Under the pieces are notes generated by a model that was given only the letters and a program-made list of their open reading frames with translations, ran no database searches and was not told the origin of the DNA. A DNA stretch of 64,000 nt from an uncultured Candidatus Saccharibacteria bacterium (GTDB lineage: Bacteria; Patescibacteriota; Saccharimonadia; UBA4664; CAZOQX01): positions 7,379-71,378 of the forward strand of contig CAZOQX010000002.1 of NCBI GenBank assembly GCA_964582465.1, written 5' to 3'. Positions 3,311 to 55,100 of this stretch are shown piece by piece; the first letter of the stretch is position 1, and each line of letters begins with the position of its first letter. The translations under genes and the position numbers were made by a program.

Positions 3311-4618
3311 GTGGCAGGTGGTATAATCGTTATGGTTATGCAACTACTACGTCCGGCCATCAGTCTCAAAGGTTTTATTGCAAATGCCTGGCAGAGTATT
3401 CGTTCCCAGCCACTCAATCCGGTCAATATCAAATACTATGTTCTTGGTACAAGCTTTTTGATTTTCGGCGTTGGTCTCGGTGCTTTATTTACGGTGTCGG
3501 GGCAGGATTTTATTTCACATATTGGTCAAACTGTAGCATCTCACTTAGTTGATGCTCCCGCTGCAACTCCTAGCCCTACAGCTTCGCCAAGTCCTAAAGC
3601 AACTTCGAAGAAGGGTAGCACTTCGGGAGGGGGGAGTGGCGGCAACAGTGCTACGACCCCGTTGCCGACGATGTTCGTGGGTGGTTTCCAAATTAATACG
3701 GTCGCAAAAGCCAATAACGCCGCCGCACTCGGCATTAAGTACGCTATCAACTATGCCTTGCCTCCGGATGAGAGTAGCTCGTTGGGGCAGGCCTTTAAAT
3801 CTCTAGGCATCAGTGTCATAGATAGCGCGCCGATGGACTATTTAACACAGTACGAGTGTCATAAACTCAGGGTAACCGAGCCGCCCAGTTATTGGCAGGG
3901 CCTGTTATTTTGTGACCGCGACTATCCTTACTTGCCCACGGAGGATAGCGTACTCGCCAATTTAGAGGCCCATTTAAAGTCTACTCAGTCGAACGCTCTA
4001 ATTAAGGGTTTTTGGGTACTTGATGATTGGCCGGCCAAGGACCCGGGCACGGCTAAATCATTGCTTGAAAGAATGCATAACTTGATTGCTCGCTACCGGC
4101 CGGGGCTCCCGGCTATTTGTGGATTTGGCGGCTCCATTGGCTTAACATCTATGGATGCGAGTGGGGGCTATAAGGAGACTCTCTATGATAACTTCACAGC
4201 GACAGGCTGTGATACGGTGGCTTTCTACATCTATCCGCGTTACATCACCGACTCGGATCCCTTACCAAACTTGGATCTAATTGACTGGTCACTTGCAAAT
4301 ACTTTGCCGGGGCGTTTCGCTGCCCTAGCAGCCCGCGGTTGGGATAAACAAAAAACTCCATTGATTGGTGTTCCGCAGGGATACAGCCGGCATGACGGTC
4401 CAAATGTTTTCAGATTTCCGCCCAGGCAGCAAGACTTAACAAATCAAATTGTAGGTTATTGCCGGCAGGGCGCCATAGGCATTGCGCCTTACGCTTGGCT
4501 GGATTCGACCGACCTGAACTGGGATCCGGTGACCCTATCGCCGATGAATAGCTTGGTGATTGCCAATGGTATCAAGGTCGGTTTAAGCAGTTGTCGCACG
4601 ATTTTACATATGCAGTAA
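3311..4618 (+). CDS. membrane-anchored/secreted hypothetical protein with Ser/Pro-rich linker and TIM-barrel-like (possible glycoside hydrolase-like) C-terminal domain
   Basis: N-terminal TM helix, S/P/T-rich low-complexity linker, long globular domain; no confident family call. Confidence 0.5.
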   Translation: MAGGIIVMVMQLLRPAISLKGFIANAWQSIRSQPLNPVNIKYYVLGTSFLIFGVGLGALFTVSGQDFISHIGQTVASHLVDAPAATPSPTASPSPKATSKKGSTSGGGSGGNSATTPLPTMFVGGFQINTVAKANNAAALGIKYAINYALPPDESSSLGQAFKSLGISVIDSAPMDYLTQYECHKLRVTEPPSYWQGLLFCDRDYPYLPTEDSVLANLEAHLKSTQSNALIKGFWVLDDWPAKDPGTAKSLLERMHNLIARYRPGLPAICGFGGSIGLTSMDASGGYKETLYDNFTATGCDTVAFYIYPRYITDSDPLPNLDLIDWSLANTLPGRFAALAARGWDKQKTPLIGVPQGYSRHDGPNVFRFPPRQQDLTNQIVGYCRQGAIGIAPYAWLDSTDLNWDPVTLSPMNSLVIANGIKVGLSSCRTILHMQ

Positions 4619-4622
4619 CAAT

Positions 4623-4698
4623 TGGCGGGCCCGACCGGGATTGAACCGGCGATCTCCTCCGTGACAGGGAGGCGTGTTAACCGCTACACTACGGGCCC
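4623..4698 (-). tRNA. tRNA-Asp (GTC)
   Basis: Cloverleaf: acceptor GGGCCCG/CGGGCCC, anticodon loop CTGTCAC, T-loop GGTTCAATCC, encoded CCA. Confidence 0.85.
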
Positions 4699-4937
4699 GT
4701 ATCACCTTTAAGTTTTACAAACGCTACGCTGGTTTGCAAAACTTTCTGATTCTGGAGCCGGTCAATCGTAGCAAATCGGCTGATCGGAGGCAAGTAGAGT
4801 TGGTGCTTATGGCTAAATTATGGTGCTTGAAGCTGGCTGAGATTAGGTGTTTTTCTCTTGTGTCACCGTCAGCCGTCTTGTAAGATAGCGCTCTGTGGCC
4901 AAAGCCAAAAAAGAGTCTCGGAAAGGGGAGCTGTCGC

Positions 4938-5237
4938 ATGAAGAATGTGTATGCCGAGATCGAGGAGCTTGACTACATCGGTCGGACCGGGGGCGGGCTG
5001 GACGATCGATCGGTGTTGCTCCGCCTGCTCACGGAGCTCAAGGAGCACCCTGACAGGCGGACAGAGCTCAAGCCCGAGATCGTGCGGCGCTGCTTGGCCT
5101 TCCGACACCGCGAGTTGGGCCACCCCGGCTACTACCAGGTGGCGAAGCTCATCCGTGAGCTGCGCATTGATCTCGCCAAGGAGGCCGCAATCCGGAAGCG
5201 CCGTCGCCGCCATCTGCGTCTCGTACCGACGAGATAG
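4938..5237 (+). CDS. hypothetical protein, GC-rich foreign-looking gene
   Basis: ATG preceded by GGGGAG RBS; extreme GC3 bias; followed by imperfect hairpin 5257-5300; lies next to tRNA-Asp. Confidence 0.4.
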   Translation: MKNVYAEIEELDYIGRTGGGLDDRSVLLRLLTELKEHPDRRTELKPEIVRRCLAFRHRELGHPGYYQVAKLIRELRIDLAKEAAIRKRRRRHLRLVPTR

Positions 5238-5445
5238 CCCCCGCGCTACGCGCCCCAGTCCCGGTCTGTGCTCACGCACGGACCGGGACGTTCGCATTTT
5301 GGTGCCCGCTCAGAAGCGTTAGCATAATCATCCAAAATTAACAAAAACAACATAAGAACATTTGGACTTCCCACTAATGAGGTTGCGCGTCCCTTCAGTC
5401 ATAATGGCGTTACCATTAAGGAGAGGAATAATAAAGTGGCAAGTT

Positions 5446-5601
5446 CAAAGGGGCGGAAGCTTAAGTCACTTTCTGATGCTCGGACGAACGACCAGGTCTT
5501 CTGGATGAGCCTAGAGGAGGCGAAACGAGCTATCGCCGATAAATATGAGTTCTTGGCTGAGCGCATTGATCGACGCGCGCTTAGAAAATAACAAAACTGT
5601 T
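5446..5601 (+). CDS. possible small ORF (51 codons, GTG start), hypothetical
   Basis: Open frame ending just before a strong intrinsic terminator; RBS spacing poor, so weak. Confidence 0.2.
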
Positions 5602-5610
5602 TTTAAACTA

Positions 5611-5643
5611 GTGCCGCCCTTTTTGGGGCGGCCTTTTTGTTTA
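5611..5643 (+). terminator. rho-independent terminator
   Basis: GCCGCCC-TTTTTG-GGGCGGC hairpin followed by T-run. Confidence 0.7.
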
Positions 5644-5711
5644 GACTTGGACAAAAAATTAGTTCGCCTGAAGCGCTAGCTTTGTTAAAATGTGGGAGCG
5701 GTACTAAGCGT

Positions 5712-31259: not shown

Positions 31260-31672
31260 GGTCCAGATTATTGGATAGCTGCTCGTGTCGAAAGGCGCGA
31301 GAGGAAAGTCCGGACAGCTTAGAGCGTGGTGGTTGCTAACGGCAACCGGGAGTAAATCCCGCGTCGTTTCTCTCGAGAAAACGGTGCCGGGAAGAAGCCT
31401 AGGGAAAGTGCCACAGAAACAATACCGCCTTCGTTTTCGAAGGTAAGGGTGAAAAGATAAGAGGTAAGAGCTCTTAAGTCCTTGTCGGTGACGGCAAGGA
31501 GCGGTAAACCCCACCTGCTGCAAGGAGTCGGCTACCCGAAAGGGCTGGTGCTCGCCAGGCCGGCGTTTGAACCCGCACGACCCTACTGGCAACGGTAGGG
31601 CAAGATAGATAGCTATCCATTTCGCCGTAAAAAGCGGAGGGACAGAATCCGGCTTACAGATAATCTGGACCA
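31260..31672 (+). ncRNA. rnpB: RNase P RNA, bacterial type A
   Basis: Conserved blocks GAGGAAAGTCCGGAC, ACAGAAAC, GGTAAACCCCACC, ACAGAATCCGGCTTAC; P1 formed by GGTCCAGATTAT / ATAATCTGGACC; ends +-5 nt. Confidence 0.85.
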
Positions 31673-44644: not shown

Positions 44645-45017
44645 GGGGCTGACATAGCTTCGACGTGAGTACATTTACAGACTATTTAGCAGGTCGGCTG
44701 GGGGCGTTACCTCCAATCTCAACAACCGAGAACTTTGTAGCTAAGCTGAAGAGCCTTTTCCAGGTTCCTCAAGCCGCTTTTGCCCTAGCTTAAGTCTAGA
44801 GCCATCGGCACCTGACACCAGATAGGGGTCTGCCGGTGCCAATCATCTGGTTGCCTTGCTTCTGCTTGCTCAAGCGCTGTAAGTAAGATATAGAGCTGGA
44901 TCACCGCTTGTTTGTGAGTTTTGCGGACGGTGATTGAGAGGATCAAATCTCACTAAACCTGTAGAATGATAGTTTGTTAGCTTGCGGACCGGGGTGCGAT
45001 TCCCCGCAGCTCCACCA
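44645..45017 (+). ncRNA. ssrA: tmRNA (SsrA)
   Basis: 5' GGGGCTGA..TTCGACG and 3' GGACCGGGGTGCGATTCCCCGCAGCTCCACCA match tmRNA tRNA-like domain; candidate tag ORF ending ...AAFALA-TAA at 44791-44793. Confidence 0.85.
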
Positions 45018-46720: not shown

Positions 46721-47407
46721 ATGCTGGAGTACAAGGTCCGTCTGTACCTCAACCCGTGGGGCGAGACAATCACCAAGGACGAGCTCCCGCGGATCCTGAA
46801 GCACGTCGCGGAGACGCGGGCCATGCACGTCGGCAGGCAGTTCGATCTCGGGCACTACAAGCGCAACAGCCTCGGACTCGCCATCCTGGACCCGACGGCC
46901 CCGATCTGGCGCCCAAGCACGCACACCCTGCTTGCGACCATCGCCATCGGCCCCGAAGGTGAGCGCTTTCTGCCGAACGCCGTGGCGAAGGCCGTGGAGC
47001 ACCGGGACAAGGGCCAGCTCGCCGGCTACGGTGCCTACGTGGACTTGACGCAGACGGCCGACGGGGACTTCACCTATGGCTTCTCCTGCCGGGTCGACGA
47101 CACCATCGGCGGGGCCAGCGGCCAGACCGAGATCCAGGATGCCTGCGAGGCGGGCCATGCCCTGGTGACGTTCAACTACCTGGTGCGGCAGGCGCGTGGC
47201 CTGTGGCTGGCGAGTCGCCAGGGACACCCTCGATGGTTCAGCGACGCCGATCAGCCCGCTGCGAAGTACGTCTCGATGACGCAGGCCGGCGCGCTCACGA
47301 TCGTGACCTCCGACTCGTCGCAGGACAAGTCTGACGACGAGGACATCGAGCCGACGCGCAGCTCCACCGACGCCTACGACATCGGGCAAGGCACTGCCGG
47401 GCCCTAG
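46721..47407 (+). CDS. hypothetical protein, GC-rich foreign-looking gene
   Basis: GGAGGG RBS; GC3-saturated; followed by hairpin terminator ~47420-47460. Confidence 0.5.
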   Translation: MLEYKVRLYLNPWGETITKDELPRILKHVAETRAMHVGRQFDLGHYKRNSLGLAILDPTAPIWRPSTHTLLATIAIGPEGERFLPNAVAKAVEHRDKGQLAGYGAYVDLTQTADGDFTYGFSCRVDDTIGGASGQTEIQDACEAGHALVTFNYLVRQARGLWLASRQGHPRWFSDADQPAAKYVSMTQAGALTIVTSDSSQDKSDDEDIEPTRSSTDAYDIGQGTAGP

Positions 47408-47526
47408 CGGCTCGGGCAACACATCACAGGGCGGGTGGCTTCTCATCGGAGAGGCTGCCCGCCCTGGCTCTTTTCAAGGATAATTTAGTTGACAAAATAA
47501 TGCTTATGTATTACGGTATTAAAGCT

Positions 47527-47625
47527 ATGACTAACGTAGTTACAACTAAATTCGTTACGGTAGGCCGAGTGCAGTATCTGCGCGCGGGTTCTTTCCGTAA
47601 CCAGGAGGCCCTAGTGCCGAGTTAA
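47527..47625 (+). CDS. candidate 32-codon leader peptide upstream of ABC exporter
   Basis: Short ORF between TTGACA-containing promoter region and intrinsic terminator; internal AGGAGG-N5-GTG mini-ORF. Confidence 0.3.
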   Translation: MTNVVTTKFVTVGRVQYLRAGSFRNQEALVPS

Positions 47626-47656
47626 CAAAAAGAGTTTGTTGGGGAACTTTTTATAG

Positions 47657-47682
47657 CTCGGCGCGAAACGCCGGCTTTTTTG
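47657..47682 (+). terminator. intrinsic terminator / candidate attenuator in exporter leader
   Basis: CGGCG-CGAAA-CGCCGG hairpin plus T6. Confidence 0.55.
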
Positions 47683-47739
47683 TTGTAAAAAGTTCTTTGA
47701 CAATCTCTCTATTCGCCATCTAGCAGAAAGGGGAAGGCA

Positions 47740-49527
47740 GTGAAGTTCGCAACTGTCAGACGGATGTGGCAGCTTTTGCGGGACGACCCCCTCAACGTAG
47801 AGCAGGTAACACGCCTGAAGCGAGTGGCACTTCGCACGCTTGGTTGGCTAATGCTAACCGAGCTAATGATCGTGCTTGCGATCTACCCGCTCAAGTACTT
47901 CTTCGATGCCATCGCCAAGCCCAACCAACGCTTCTTCGGCCTGAGCCAGGTGCCGTTCATGCTGGTAATCGGCGCCATGTCGCTTGCTACCTACCTGGCC
48001 ACGTCGCTCGCTAACTTCAAAAACGAGATCGGCCGCAATGAAGGGTCCTGGCTGTTCTACGTCATGGTGAACGATTTCGGCAACCGTAAACAGTTGTCGC
48101 TCGGAGCCGATTGGCACACCGAAAACTCCACGGGCGATAAGGAGTCGGTGTTGTCGAAGAACCACAAGAAAGTCGACAACATGGTGGACTGGCTCATCTA
48201 CTTCATCGCGCCCTTAAGCTTCAAACTGGTCTTTGTGACTGTGGCACTCGCGGTCATTAACTGGCAATTTGGTCTGCTCACCTTGGTGACAGAGCTCGCC
48301 TTCTTCGCGGTAATTCGCCGCAACGAGCGGGTGATTTCGCCTTTGCGCAAGGAGCATCGGCGTTTCACTAAGCAAATTGAGCGGGAGGATTCGGAGCTTG
48401 CCGGGTCTGCTACCACTATTAAGGAGCAGGGTATTGAAGACAAGCTGGCTGACGACCATCGCTCGCTGGGCCGACTATTCCTGGAAACAGAGGGCGGTCG
48501 CTACAAGCGTTTCCGTACGCTCATCTGGTATCAGGATCAAATCCTGGACCTTTCACGCCTGGCCATCCTGGCGCTGTCGTACTTGAACTTTCGGCAGGGG
48601 CTATCGATTGGCAGTGTTGTGCTCGCGAACTCCTGGCTAGCTTGGTTGTTCAGCGATCTGTGGCGCTTCTCGGAGTTTCAGAACATTCTAAATCAGGGGG
48701 TCGAAGCACTAGGCGAACTAGTGGAGCTATTTGAAACCGAGCCGACCATTCAGACGCCGGCTCGCCCGCAGTGGCCGCCGGCTGTGCAGGGTCGGATTGA
48801 GCTGCGGCAGGTTTCGTTCGAGTACCCGCGTGGTCAGATCGCCCTCACAGACATTGACCTCACCGTCGATCCGGGAATGACGGTGGCTCTGGTCGGCCCG
48901 TCGGGTGGCGGCAAGACGACCTTGGCGCGGCTGGTGATGCACCAGTACGACCCCTCGGCTGGTGAAATCTTAGTGGACGGCGTGAATCTGCGCGACATCG
49001 ACGACAAGCGCTACCGCTCGGAATTACTCGGTGTGGTGGCGCAAGATCCAGGTCTTTTTAACCGCTCAGTGCGGGAAAATATCCGGATCGCAAAGCCCGG
49101 TGCGAGCGACGATGAGGTCTTGGGGGCCGCTCGTCAAGCGGCGGCGGAGGTCTTCATTCAATCCTTGCCTCAGGGCTTTGACACTCTGGTGGGCGAGGGT
49201 GGCGTGAAGCTTTCCGGTGGGCAGCGTCAGCGCATTGCCATGGCCCGGGCCTTTTTGCGTCGGCCGGCTATCCTGATCCTGGATGAGCCCACCAGCTCAC
49301 TGGATGCAGTGAATCAGCTGCTGATTAAGCAAACGATTACGCGGCTGGCCGCCAGTCGGAGCTCGACTATCCTGATCATCGCGCATCGTTTCAGCACCAT
49401 CGAGATGGCTGATCTGGTAGTGGTGCTGGAAGATGGACGCATTTCCGAGATGGGCACCCATGCTGAACTGGCGCGTCGGAATGGACTGTACATGAGACTG
49501 CGGCAGCTGGAGGGGCTGCTGGATTAA
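47740..49527 (+). CDS. ABC exporter, fused permease + ATPase (type I exporter fold)
   Basis: GTG start after AAAGGGGAAGG; 5-6 TM helices; Walker A GPSGGGKTT, signature LSGGQRQRIAMARA, Walker B ILILDEPTSSLD. Confidence 0.85.
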   Translation: MKFATVRRMWQLLRDDPLNVEQVTRLKRVALRTLGWLMLTELMIVLAIYPLKYFFDAIAKPNQRFFGLSQVPFMLVIGAMSLATYLATSLANFKNEIGRNEGSWLFYVMVNDFGNRKQLSLGADWHTENSTGDKESVLSKNHKKVDNMVDWLIYFIAPLSFKLVFVTVALAVINWQFGLLTLVTELAFFAVIRRNERVISPLRKEHRRFTKQIEREDSELAGSATTIKEQGIEDKLADDHRSLGRLFLETEGGRYKRFRTLIWYQDQILDLSRLAILALSYLNFRQGLSIGSVVLANSWLAWLFSDLWRFSEFQNILNQGVEALGELVELFETEPTIQTPARPQWPPAVQGRIELRQVSFEYPRGQIALTDIDLTVDPGMTVALVGPSGGGKTTLARLVMHQYDPSAGEILVDGVNLRDIDDKRYRSELLGVVAQDPGLFNRSVRENIRIAKPGASDDEVLGAARQAAAEVFIQSLPQGFDTLVGEGGVKLSGGQRQRIAMARAFLRRPAILILDEPTSSLDAVNQLLIKQTITRLAASRSSTILIIAHRFSTIEMADLVVVLEDGRISEMGTHAELARRNGLYMRLRQLEGLLD

Positions 49528-49652
49528 ATCCTGTGGTAATAAACTACGGGAGAGAGCCCTGCGTTTTAAGCGCGGGGCTCTTTTCTATTGACTAGGCTGA
49601 CTCAAAACACTATATTTTGGTCACTCGTTGACATCTGTTAGGGGGTGGGGAA

Positions 49653-50015
49653 TTGGTTCCGCGAATTGCCGCCGCTGCCTTAGCCGTCGCAGTAGCATGG
49701 GCCATGATTCTCCTGGTGGCCCAGGTCAATCAAGGTGAGGCAGAGCTGGCTGCTCTAGTCTTCTTCTCGCTGCCGTGCGGCCTGTGGGGATATTTCGTGC
49801 CGGCGGATTTGGAAAGCGCCTTCCTTTCCGGCGCCCTGACGCTGTCAGGGATTATCCTGCTGGTTGTGGCTATCTCGGGCGAAGTGAGCTGGCGAGGGAT
49901 GCGACTGGCAGGGCAGATGTTCATGGTGGGTGGCATTTCCGTGGGCCTGGCCTGTATTACCAAGCACCGTCTCCTGCGTGCACAGCAACTTTGGAGGGAG
50001 TCGAAAACACGATGA
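49653..50015 (+). CDS. small membrane protein (3-4 TM), GC-rich
   Basis: TTG 49653 (or ATG 49704); stop overlaps next start (ATGA). Confidence 0.4.
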   Translation: MVPRIAAAALAVAVAWAMILLVAQVNQGEAELAALVFFSLPCGLWGYFVPADLESAFLSGALTLSGIILLVVAISGEVSWRGMRLAGQMFMVGGISVGLACITKHRLLRAQQLWRESKTR

Positions 50016-50419
50016 ACGCCTACCGGTTGTGGTTGTTCTTGGCAGCACTTGGCCTGATCGGCGCCGTGATCCTGGTGTTCCACCCCTGGAGCAAGAGTCA
50101 GCACAAGTTCGCGCTGTCATTCCAGGAAGTGGTTCGGGAACACCTGGAGAAACGTGGGCTTTCCGACGACAGCATCGAGCGCTGGCTGGATTATCCGAAT
50201 GCGCAACTGCAAGGTCGGACACCCCGCCAGGTGCTTCAAGACGGGGACGGTCCACTTGTGCTGGATCTGGCCGACAACTGTCCGGAGGGTGTGCGCTTTC
50301 CTCACTTCGGCCACTCTCATCACATCCGGCTGGACACGGTGGGAAACCTGCTTCCTCTTAGCTCTCCGGACTGCAATCTCTCCGGCTGGGAGCTGCTGCG
50401 ATCGAGCAGAGGCAGGTGA
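50012..50419 (+). CDS. signal-anchored protein with DUF2384-like (Xre/MbcA/ParS antitoxin C-terminal) domain
   Basis: N-terminal TM; SIERWLDYPNAQLQGRTPRQVLQDGDGPLVLDL resembles DUF2384 consensus. Confidence 0.4.
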   Translation: MNAYRLWLFLAALGLIGAVILVFHPWSKSQHKFALSFQEVVREHLEKRGLSDDSIERWLDYPNAQLQGRTPRQVLQDGDGPLVLDLADNCPEGVRFPHFGHSHHIRLDTVGNLLPLSSPDCNLSGWELLRSSRGR

Positions 50420-54517: not shown

Positions 54518-54841
54518 ATGAAATACATTATGGCGCAGTACAAAGTTAAGTCGGGCAGGCAGGCCGAAGTTTGGCCATTGGTACGTGACTTTGTGGCGGC
54601 GGTTACGGCCAATGAGCCCGGCACTTTGTATTACGACGCCTACGTCCAAAAAGACAATGTGACGTTCGTTCACGCGATGGCTTTTCGCGACGCAGCGGCC
54701 GAAAAAATTCACACGTCGAGTGGCTACGTTAAAACATTTGTGGGCGCACTTTATCCACTTTGTGTGACGCCGCCGGAATTTTATGACATGAAATTGGTAG
54801 CCTCCAAAACGGCGCCGACCAAGTCTAAGCTAAAAGGCTAG
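54518..54841 (+). CDS. antibiotic-biosynthesis-monooxygenase (ABM/Dabb) domain protein
   Basis: Ferredoxin-like ~100 aa, YgiN-like pattern. Confidence 0.55.
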   Translation: MKYIMAQYKVKSGRQAEVWPLVRDFVAAVTANEPGTLYYDAYVQKDNVTFVHAMAFRDAAAEKIHTSSGYVKTFVGALYPLCVTPPEFYDMKLVASKTAPTKSKLKG

Positions 54842-54844
54842 TAC

Positions 54845-54890
54845 GAAAAAACGGCTCTTTCAAGCCGTTCTTTCGTGATTTTTTGTTTTG
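54845..54890 (+). terminator. rho-independent terminator
   Basis: AACGGCT-CTTTCA-AGCCGTT hairpin followed by T-rich tract. Confidence 0.6.
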
Positions 54891-55100
54891 AGTACTTTTT
54901 TTGTACAAGTACCTATAGCTAATGTAATACAGGTGAAATCACACTGTCAATACTTTTTATGTTAAAAAGTCCAACTTTTTTTGTTGCATTGTGCGAACGC
55001 CAAATTTTGAAAGTCGCCCGCACGCAATGTTTGGCATTTTGGTGGCTAGCGTTTTTGCGGTGCGGTCTTTACAATCGCTAAGTTATGTGAGGAAAAAGTT

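Follow-up and report, generated by a model that had tools for sequence, protein, structure and literature searches.

Why should the gene for an ABC exporter be preceded, within its own transcript, by a small open reading frame (ORF) and an intrinsic transcription terminator? This question is raised by a locus in a 64,000-nucleotide stretch of DNA from an uncultured Candidatus Saccharibacteria bacterium (contig CAZOQX010000002.1, positions 7,379 to 71,378), which we refer to as the window. An earlier description of the locus, made from the letters of the window (the sequence-only reading), took it for an attenuator-like leader, and our analysis supports that description in part. We consider it probable that the locus is a ribosome-mediated transcription attenuator controlling a single ABCB-type exporter gene. 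What the in silico analysis shows to be conserved is the ORF, the terminator and an antiterminator, which overlaps the ORF end and excludes the terminator. The window alone offers modest, indeed weak, evidence for an attenuator. What we take to be decisive, as a matter of comparative sequence evidence, is that the layout is conserved in 12 other loci.

The leader locus

The elements of the locus all lie on the forward strand. As the sequence-only reading noted, a TTGACA element is present at 47489-47494. It forms the -35 box of a putative leader promoter (47489-47517), which continues with a 17-nucleotide spacer and the -10 candidate TACGGT (47512-47517). The promoter begins only 22 nucleotides beyond the terminator of the upstream gene (47427-47466), and a simple promoter scan of the window misses it. 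Only 9 nucleotides past the -10 candidate stands the ATG (47527) of a near-leaderless ORF of 32 codons, which ends in a TAA at 47623-47625 and lacks a Shine-Dalgarno (SD) sequence. This ORF (47527-47625, peptide MTNVVTTKFVTVGRVQYLRAGSFRNQEALVPS) is just as it had been described. The mechanical ORF call is longer, comprising 41 codons from ATG 47500, a codon that lies inside the promoter spacer.

Past the ORF come the terminator and the GTG start of the exporter gene, both of which had also been recognised correctly. The terminator hairpin, AGCTCGGCG-cgaaa-CGCCGGCT, occupies 47655-47676 and runs into a T6 tract at 47676-47681. A terminator scan, which reports five sites in the window against 3.6 expected, finds the same element at 47655-47681 (stem AGCUCGGCG / CGCCGGCU, loop CGAAA, U6). 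The exporter gene (47740-49527) encodes an ABCB-type half-transporter of 595 amino acids, and its SD region, AAAGGGGAAGG, can be read from the sequence at 47727-47739. The gene has a terminator of its own at approximately 49552-49586, likewise read from the sequence, and the promoter scan places the promoter of the next gene (TTGACT-17-TATATT) at 49588; the unit therefore consists of the leader and a single gene. Located between the promoter at 47489 and the ABC start at 47740, the leader ORF belongs to the same transcription unit, and no convincing second promoter was seen in the window between the ORF and the ABC gene.

The sequence-only reading had pointed to alternative pairings that overlap the leader ORF as the thing to look for, and the minimum free energy (MFE) fold of the window leader contains one. 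The strand GUGCCGAGUUA (47614-47624), made up of the last three sense codons and two bases of the stop codon, pairs with UAGCUCGGCGC (47654-47664), and an inner hairpin, AAAGAGUUU / GAACUUUUU at 47629-47652, bridges the two strands. Since the 3' strand of this antiterminator overlaps the 5' arm of the terminator, the two structures are mutually exclusive. Compared with shuffled sequence, the leader folds with z = -3.3.

Conservation of the layout

We compared the DNA of 13 loci, the window included; the ABC genes of the other 12 are only 39-55% identical. The flanking genes differ at every locus, and the leader with its ABC gene is the only constant linkage. A TTGAC(A/T) box stands 38-40 nucleotides before an SD-less leader ATG in all 13 loci, and all 13 of the -10 candidates fit TAnnnT. 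About 30 nucleotides after the ORF, every locus except L107 has a terminator with the near-invariant stem AGCUCGGC...GCCGAGCU followed by a U-tract, and a strong SD and the ABC start come 40-240 nucleotides past that U-tract (12/13 loci). The DNA of these leaders is only 50-68% identical, with many indels.

A covariance model of 90 positions (R1) was built from 11 loci, with L109 held out. R1 scores the window leader at 52.7 bits and finds the held-out locus at 37.5 bits (E = 2e-6); L109 has every predicted feature, including an open ORF of 38 codons and an antiterminator of -20.7 kcal/mol. The model has no match in 97 control loci, 95 of which carry unrelated ABC genes, and no second strong match in the window. 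A metagenome scan with ABC alignment patterns from the conserved ATPase end returned at least 80 distant ABC genes, partial matches of approximately 30-50% identity. R1 finds no leader in those 80 loci, so they served as negative controls only. Viral contigs were scanned for the 15-mer TGGTTGACCAGCTAA, which gave 103 matches, 80 of which were run against R1. Among these there were only two R1 matches, with identical scores of 25.7 bits, and the one that we inspected (L130) has no terminator; these candidates were rejected.

Searches of Rfam (Rfam 15) gave no match at the leader with the whole window at gathering thresholds, no relevant hit up to E = 10 in a permissive search of 47350-47800, and, with a limit of E = 0.1, nothing relevant in six of the related loci. 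The leader matches no described RNA family.

Some features of individual relatives are worth recording. Between the leader terminator and the ABC SD, a second conserved element is found in L099 (2295-2350), L100 (2440-2490), L106 (1410-1465) and L109 (665-725). It consists of a hairpin (GGTGCCC...GGGCACC-like) and then GCGCTAGACGGGTC; the window lacks this element, and Rfam gives no hit to it. At 119-200 of L108, a strong promoter and an SD accompany an ORF of 8 codons (MFIRLHRS); L107 has a near-leaderless 42-codon ORF at 820-988, where a simple scan finds no intrinsic terminator. The promoter scan scores both of these loci at 11/12. A short ORF before this pump family is therefore more widespread than the RNA design described here.

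Terminator and antiterminator

The 12 terminator-bearing leaders were folded unconstrained, from the 5' end to just before the 3' arm of the terminator. In all 12, the final sense codons of the ORF are paired with GCUCGG, the invariant part of the terminator 5' arm, and in 10 of them the helix lies immediately next to the stop codon. The duplexes of the antiterminator range from -12 to -21 kcal/mol, with z-scores between -1.8 and -5.4 relative to shuffles (mean -3.4; 12/12 loci), and most homologues are predicted to have an equivalent of the inner hairpin. In 10 of the 12 loci, the local segment with the antiterminator has a higher stability than the terminator. If a ribosome footprint is masked at the stop codon, the terminator becomes the preferred fold in each of the 11 loci folded in this way.

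RNAalifold, applied to MAFFT alignments, yields the terminator as the only consensus helix, with GCUCGG near-invariant in 12 loci, because the body of the ORF does not align. The antiterminator and a longer outer stem, described below, were therefore tested per sequence and by counts on named structures. When the antiterminator helix is transferred from the window to its homologues on a sequence-only MAFFT alignment (A2), 78% of the cells pair, against 18-48% when the helix is slid, and there are four compensatory pairs. At one position the covariation extends to three strands. The 5' arm is CUCGGC in the window, as against CUCGGG in L001 and L002; the end of the ORF (GCCGAG versus CCCGAG or UCUCGAG) and the 3' arm of the terminator change along with it.

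The interior of the ORF is also structured. The window MFE has a GC-rich hairpin at 47554-47601 (GUUACGG...CCGUAAC), and in all homologues this site is occupied by one or two GC-rich hairpins, with differing sequences; judged from these folds, the hairpin of the window is a candidate RNA polymerase pause or spacer hairpin. In the window only, the heptamer GCCGAGU at 47564-47570, inside this hairpin, repeats the core (47616-47622) of the 5' strand of the antiterminator. It could be an alternative partner of the terminator 5' arm.

Proposed mechanism

We propose that transcription would start a few bases 5' of ATG 47527, giving a leaderless or near-leaderless mRNA, and that a 70S ribosome would translate the 32-codon leader ORF as RNA polymerase proceeds. 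The last codons and the stop codon (47614-47624) would provide a strand complementary to the terminator 5' arm (47654-47664). Should this stretch be free of ribosome when the 5' arm emerges, the two strands would pair, with the inner hairpin (47629-47652) helping to nucleate the helix. Once formed, the antiterminator would preclude the terminator and the polymerase would enter the ABC gene (ON). A ribosome at the stop codon would mask the antiterminator strand, in which case the hairpin at 47655-47676 and its U6 would form and transcription would stop (OFF). Efficient translation of the leader would mean OFF, and slow, stalled or absent translation, whether due to antibiotics, uncharged tRNA or few free ribosomes, would mean ON. 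We infer the translation of the ORF, the direction and the signal of the switch, and a harmful substrate for the pump.

Putative translation of the leader ORF

Is the ORF more than a chance interval between stop codons? The ATG frame is open in 13 of 13 loci, for 29-42 codons. By frame, the stops over the span of the ORF number 0/38/14, and within the AU-rich first 16 codons 0, 28 and 8. In dinucleotide shuffles, the chance of an open frame is 0.07-0.36 per sequence, with a product of 7e-10 for 12 loci, although the sequences share ancestry and such p-values overstate their independence. A conserved stop motif, AGYUAR, is always in frame with the fixed ATG despite ORF lengths of 32, 35, 36, 38, 39 and 40 codons. 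On this comparative evidence the leader ORF appears to have been kept by selection across the relatives.

What is kept does not seem to be a peptide. Third-position substitutions are not in excess within the ORF (e.g. 14/11/16 and 7/10/12 by codon position), the leader peptides are barely alignable and their amino-acid conservation is weak; it would thus seem that the frame is preserved for translation as such and not for its product. The 13 peptides show no consistent run of codons for a single amino acid, so that a general translation sensor is likelier than an amino-acid-specific one. Their Thr/Asn/Ile-rich N-termini track an AU-rich hairpin at the 5' end, and their weakly conserved first residues, x-N/T-I-T-x-N, fall on the 3' strand of this hairpin, which pairs with the UAUG around the start codon. 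In the window the hairpin is tentatively placed at 47523-47541 (AGCUAUG / CGUAGUU). It is found over the AUG in the MFE folds of the window and of most homologues. On a gapless alignment (A4), 71% of cells pair versus 24-53% with a slid partner, and the helix is not significant by column shuffle (93/500).

Could the leader instead act as RNA alone? If it were a riboswitch or a protein-binding leader that works without translation, the choice between antiterminator and terminator would fall to a ligand, protein or tRNA bound to the structured 5' part, and the open frame would be incidental. The high degree of structure (z = -3.3), the absence of codon periodicity and a leader AUG that is possibly paired would all suit such an RNA. 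Some motifs also act as RNA rather than as codons: UUUGG occurs in different frames, and the 15-nucleotide UGGUUGACCAGCUAA is identical in four loci, third positions included, with one difference in L106. Yet incidental openness is hard to reconcile with a frame that is open in 13/13 loci, against 38 and 14 stops in the others, and that keeps its fixed ATG and in-frame stop through changes in length. Furthermore, the region from the 5' hairpin to the antiterminator is almost without conserved nucleotides or alignable junctions of the aptamer type, and no Rfam family matches. We therefore regard a translation-independent leader as unlikely.

One transcript or two

A long outer stem (47631-47708) encloses the terminator and its U-tract, with a 5' arm at 47631-47657 and a 3' arm at 47682-47708. 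The flank-to-flank duplex has z-scores of -3 to -8 in 10 of 12 loci, and the stem can only form after read-through. Its 3' arm holds a second TTGACA (47698-47703), the conservation of which follows from its being part of the stem. As a promoter we rejected this box, since it has no conserved -10, is too near the SD in the window and lies within a significant stem.

Were that box a promoter all the same, the locus would hold two separate genes, namely a small RNA or small-protein gene with its own terminator and an ABC gene transcribed from 47698-47703. In favour of this, most loci have a TTGACA-like box past the terminator, the window terminator appears strong (U6), and the terminated RNA of approximately 155 nucleotides could act in trans, like rnTrpL (PMC6614838). 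However, transcription from the second box would, in the window, begin at or inside the ABC SD, and the significant stem suffices to explain why the box is conserved. The leader and the ABC gene are, moreover, the sole lasting linkage across 12 loci with differing neighbours. A conserved antiterminator would be purposeless at a plain gene end, and several homologues have interrupted U-tracts, which are typical of regulated terminators. Two independent genes are thus distinctly unlikely, and we return to a single transcript in which an attenuator precedes the exporter gene.

Direction of the proposed switch

An SD-like AGGAGG is located at 47603-47608, 14 nucleotides 5' of the leader stop codon. 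The box reads (A)AGGAGG in the window, L102, L104 and L101, where it stands 10-14 nucleotides before the stop codon. It is degenerate (AAGG) in L105, L106, L100 and L003, and L099, L109, L001 and L002 have no such box. The sequence-only reading had placed a GTG mini-ORF here, and the AGGAGG, the 5-nucleotide gap and GTG-CCG-AGT-TAA (47614-47625) are indeed present. It is not conserved in the homologues: L102 and L104 keep AAGGAGG without a following start codon and four loci lack the box, so we do not consider the mini-ORF a conserved element. One speculation is that the box holds the terminating ribosome in place.

The box is also the starting point for an attenuator of the opposite sign. Here, a ribosome that stalls on the stop codon, for instance through an effect of the nascent peptide or of a release factor in concert with the SD-like box, would lead to termination, while rapid release would lead to the antiterminator and a default state of ON. 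The AGGAGG found 10-14 nucleotides before the stop codon in four loci fits this, as does an antiterminator that is more stable than the terminator in most loci; against it, a third of the loci have no SD-like box, there is no conserved arrest peptide and the characterised analogues run the other way (PMC4191407, PMC10274678). We judge the reversed direction to be very unlikely. Highly improbable, finally, is a functional micropeptide that serves the exporter as accessory subunit, substrate or signal, with a partial terminator setting the peptide-to-pump ratio: in its favour are the conservation of the ORF, its tight linkage with the exporter and the existence of bacteriocin peptide-plus-ABC operons with internal terminators, but these peptides of 29-42 amino acids barely align and have no third-position bias, none of the 13 inspected by eye has a hydrophobic helix, double-glycine leader or cysteine pattern, the ABC protein has no peptidase domain, and the conserved N- and C-terminal stretches are accounted for by RNA pairing.

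Weighing the proposed attenuator

Several points weigh against a ribosome-mediated attenuator as we have drawn it. The best -10 candidate puts the start of transcription 2-5 nucleotides before the AUG and not on it, and the small 5' hairpin, if the predicted fold is correct, may sequester that AUG. Translation of an SD-less ORF in Saccharibacteria is an assumption of the proposal, and the absence of codon periodicity suits a leader in which only translation matters and a non-coding RNA equally. Two loci, L099 and L003, have an antiterminator that is weaker than their terminator. Two relatives, L107 (39% identity) and L108 (49%), use different leaders. Lastly, there are only three segments and no anti-antiterminator was found in the leader, so that an untranslated transcript would read through; the default or basal level therefore depends on kinetics.

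The exporter

The GTG at 47740 opens an ORF whose product has an N-terminal membrane domain and a C-terminal ATPase, with a Pfam ABC_tran match at 1.2e-32 and a weak match to ABC_membrane. The membrane domain followed by the ATPase, with similarity to solved exporters, places the protein among the ABCB-type (type IV fold) exporters, whose N-terminal membrane domain has six helices; this agrees with the exporter recognised by the sequence-only reading. The NCBIfam matches are MsbA-, HlyB- and CydCD-like, all under cut-off, and no substrate-specific NCBIfam model is passed; neither Pfam nor NCBIfam shows a peptidase domain. The closest solved structures are Sav1866, Atm1-type exporters and ABCB1, with near full-length matches to Sav1866 (residues 120-592) and the Atm1-type exporters (81-587). 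The translation-stress-inducible efflux suggested by the sequence-only reading would go beyond these matches, as the inducer and the substrate cannot be read from the sequence.

Among species-representative genomes, the nearest relatives of the protein are from metagenome-assembled genomes (MAGs) of Candidatus Saccharibacteria / Saccharimonadales, at 39-54% identity. The protein database holds 17 full-length relatives (590-607 amino acids, P0002-P0018) at 47-55% identity, plus a clade at 39%, and orthologues at 47-55% identity occur in Saccharibacteria MAGs and metagenomes. All of the homologues have GAAAGGAG-like SD boxes before the ABC gene. The ribosome-binding site (RBS) region of the window gene (47683-47765) folds at -16.4 kcal/mol, and shuffled sequence folds just as well (z = -0.22). 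Erm-type translational attenuation, a parallel drawn in the sequence-only reading, is therefore unsupported: the RBS is unsequestered and, unlike erm leaders, the leader ORF has no SD.

The neighbourhood of the gene varies. In L001 (428-500), a MAG locus, the ABC gene has an in-frame stop 14 codons in; homology resumes in another frame, which indicates a frameshift or an assembly error. In L100, genes for a thioredoxin and a DsbD/CcdA-like membrane protein lie 3' of the ABC gene (4470-5674), a weak hint at a thiol or redox link of the pump; the other loci have no such genes. In the window, an ORF of 214 amino acids follows the ABC gene (49775-50419), with a sub-threshold match to an Xre/MbcA/ParS antitoxin C-terminal domain (E = 3.6e-4).

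Comparison with known systems

In the attenuators of the trp, his, thr and ilv operons, a leader peptide goes together with competing hairpins and an intrinsic terminator, and control depends on the coupling of transcription and translation. The element described here has the same parts and would depend on the same coupling. It differs in having three segments, whereas the amino-acid attenuators have four, including a 1:2 pause or anti-antiterminator hairpin, and in preceding an exporter gene; the classical examples have runs of regulatory codons and control biosynthetic genes. With the erm and cat leaders it has in common a short leader ORF that would sense ribosome stalling. Those leaders, however, free a sequestered RBS, while here the ABC RBS is unsequestered and the switch is a transcription terminator.

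A closer parallel, also suggested by the sequence-only reading, is bmrB-bmrCD of Bacillus subtilis. There it has been proven experimentally that efficient translation of the leader blocks an antiterminator and causes termination, and that slow translation permits read-through (PMC4191407). In both cases a leader ORF precedes an ABCB-type exporter and a terminator competes with an alternative antiterminator, and the logic of our proposal fits that model (PMC4191407). The details do not carry over. The bmrB ORF has a 5' untranslated region, an SD and 54 codons, with the terminator inside its coding region; the Saccharibacteria ORF is SD-less and near-leaderless, with 32 codons and a terminator 30 nucleotides past the stop codon. 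Two genes encode the heterodimeric BmrCD, in contrast to the single half-transporter gene here. An anti-antiterminator is predicted for bmrB and none was found in the window leader, and we saw no sequence similarity between the two leaders.

The same switch logic has been proven by experiment for the whiB7 upstream ORF (uORF) of mycobacteria and other Actinobacteria, where efficient translation leads to a rho-independent terminator and antibiotics or amino-acid shortage lead to an antiterminator and read-through (PMC10274678). The mixed composition of the whiB7 uORF marks it as a general translation sensor (PMC10274678). It controls a transcription factor and not a transporter, in another phylum, and its sequence is unrelated. 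Leaderless polycysteine short ORFs also act as attenuators in mycobacteria (bioRxiv 10.1101/834739). They resemble the present element as leaderless short first cistrons that regulate downstream genes via their own translation; they sense one amino acid through runs of Cys codons, whereas the Saccharibacteria leaders have no consistent run.

The mechanism as such is already known, and the value of the element is one of extension and annotation rather than of a new principle. In the literature that we searched, we found no report of ribosome-mediated attenuation, nor of regulatory leaderless ORFs, in Saccharibacteria or other bacteria of the Candidate Phyla Radiation (CPR). As far as that literature shows, the element would be the first in these bacteria to be put forward as a transcription control that senses the ribosome.

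The promoter spacer and an extended reading

The leader promoter contains a further motif, GCTTATG at 47502-47508, inside its spacer. The combination TTGACA-N8-13-CTTATG occurs once in the 64-kb window, where 0.01 occurrences are expected. In 10 of the 13 loci (G)CTTATG is kept at the same position in the spacer, and in L001 and L002 the inverse motif AAGCATAAG lies 5' of the -35, which creates an inverted repeat around it. The motif may be an operator.

These observations can be drawn together into a more ambitious reading, in which the locus is a translation-capacity sensor specific to Saccharibacteria (CPR). A hairpin would gate the leaderless AUG, the SD-like box would tether the terminating 70S ribosome over the antiterminator strand, the outer stem would refold the read-through mRNA, and the operator-like motif in the spacer would provide a second input at the DNA level. 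These features are not known to have been described together before. That all of them hold is unlikely.

Other features of the window

Further RNAs encoded in the window are RNase P RNA, tmRNA and seven tRNAs. Rfam places the tmRNA at 44645-45017 (105.6 bits) and a class A RNase P RNA at 31263-31672 (235.9 bits); ARAGORN lists the seven tRNAs and not the tmRNA. On the reverse strand, 54830-54921 has a TTGACA-N17-TTACAT promoter-like sequence, approximately 80 nucleotides with a hairpin (GGTACTT...AAGTACT), a clean terminator (AACGGCTtgaaagAGCCGTTTTTT) and no ORF. No Rfam family matches it at the gathering threshold, and from its layout it may be a small RNA gene.

Implications

There is, to our knowledge, next to no information on how Saccharibacteria and other CPR bacteria regulate their genes. 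Their genomes are tiny, their transcription factors are few, and they live attached to bacterial hosts. If the attenuator is real, it suggests that Saccharibacteria make regulatory use of leaderless translation. The control by a leader marks one orphan ABC exporter as worth tight and fast control, which makes it a candidate for defence against antibiotics or toxic metabolites in the symbiosis. The 90-position covariance model provides a means of finding further copies. Should the extended reading also prove true, an obligate episymbiont could induce its exporter when its ribosomes are hit, for example by the antibiotics of its actinobacterial host.

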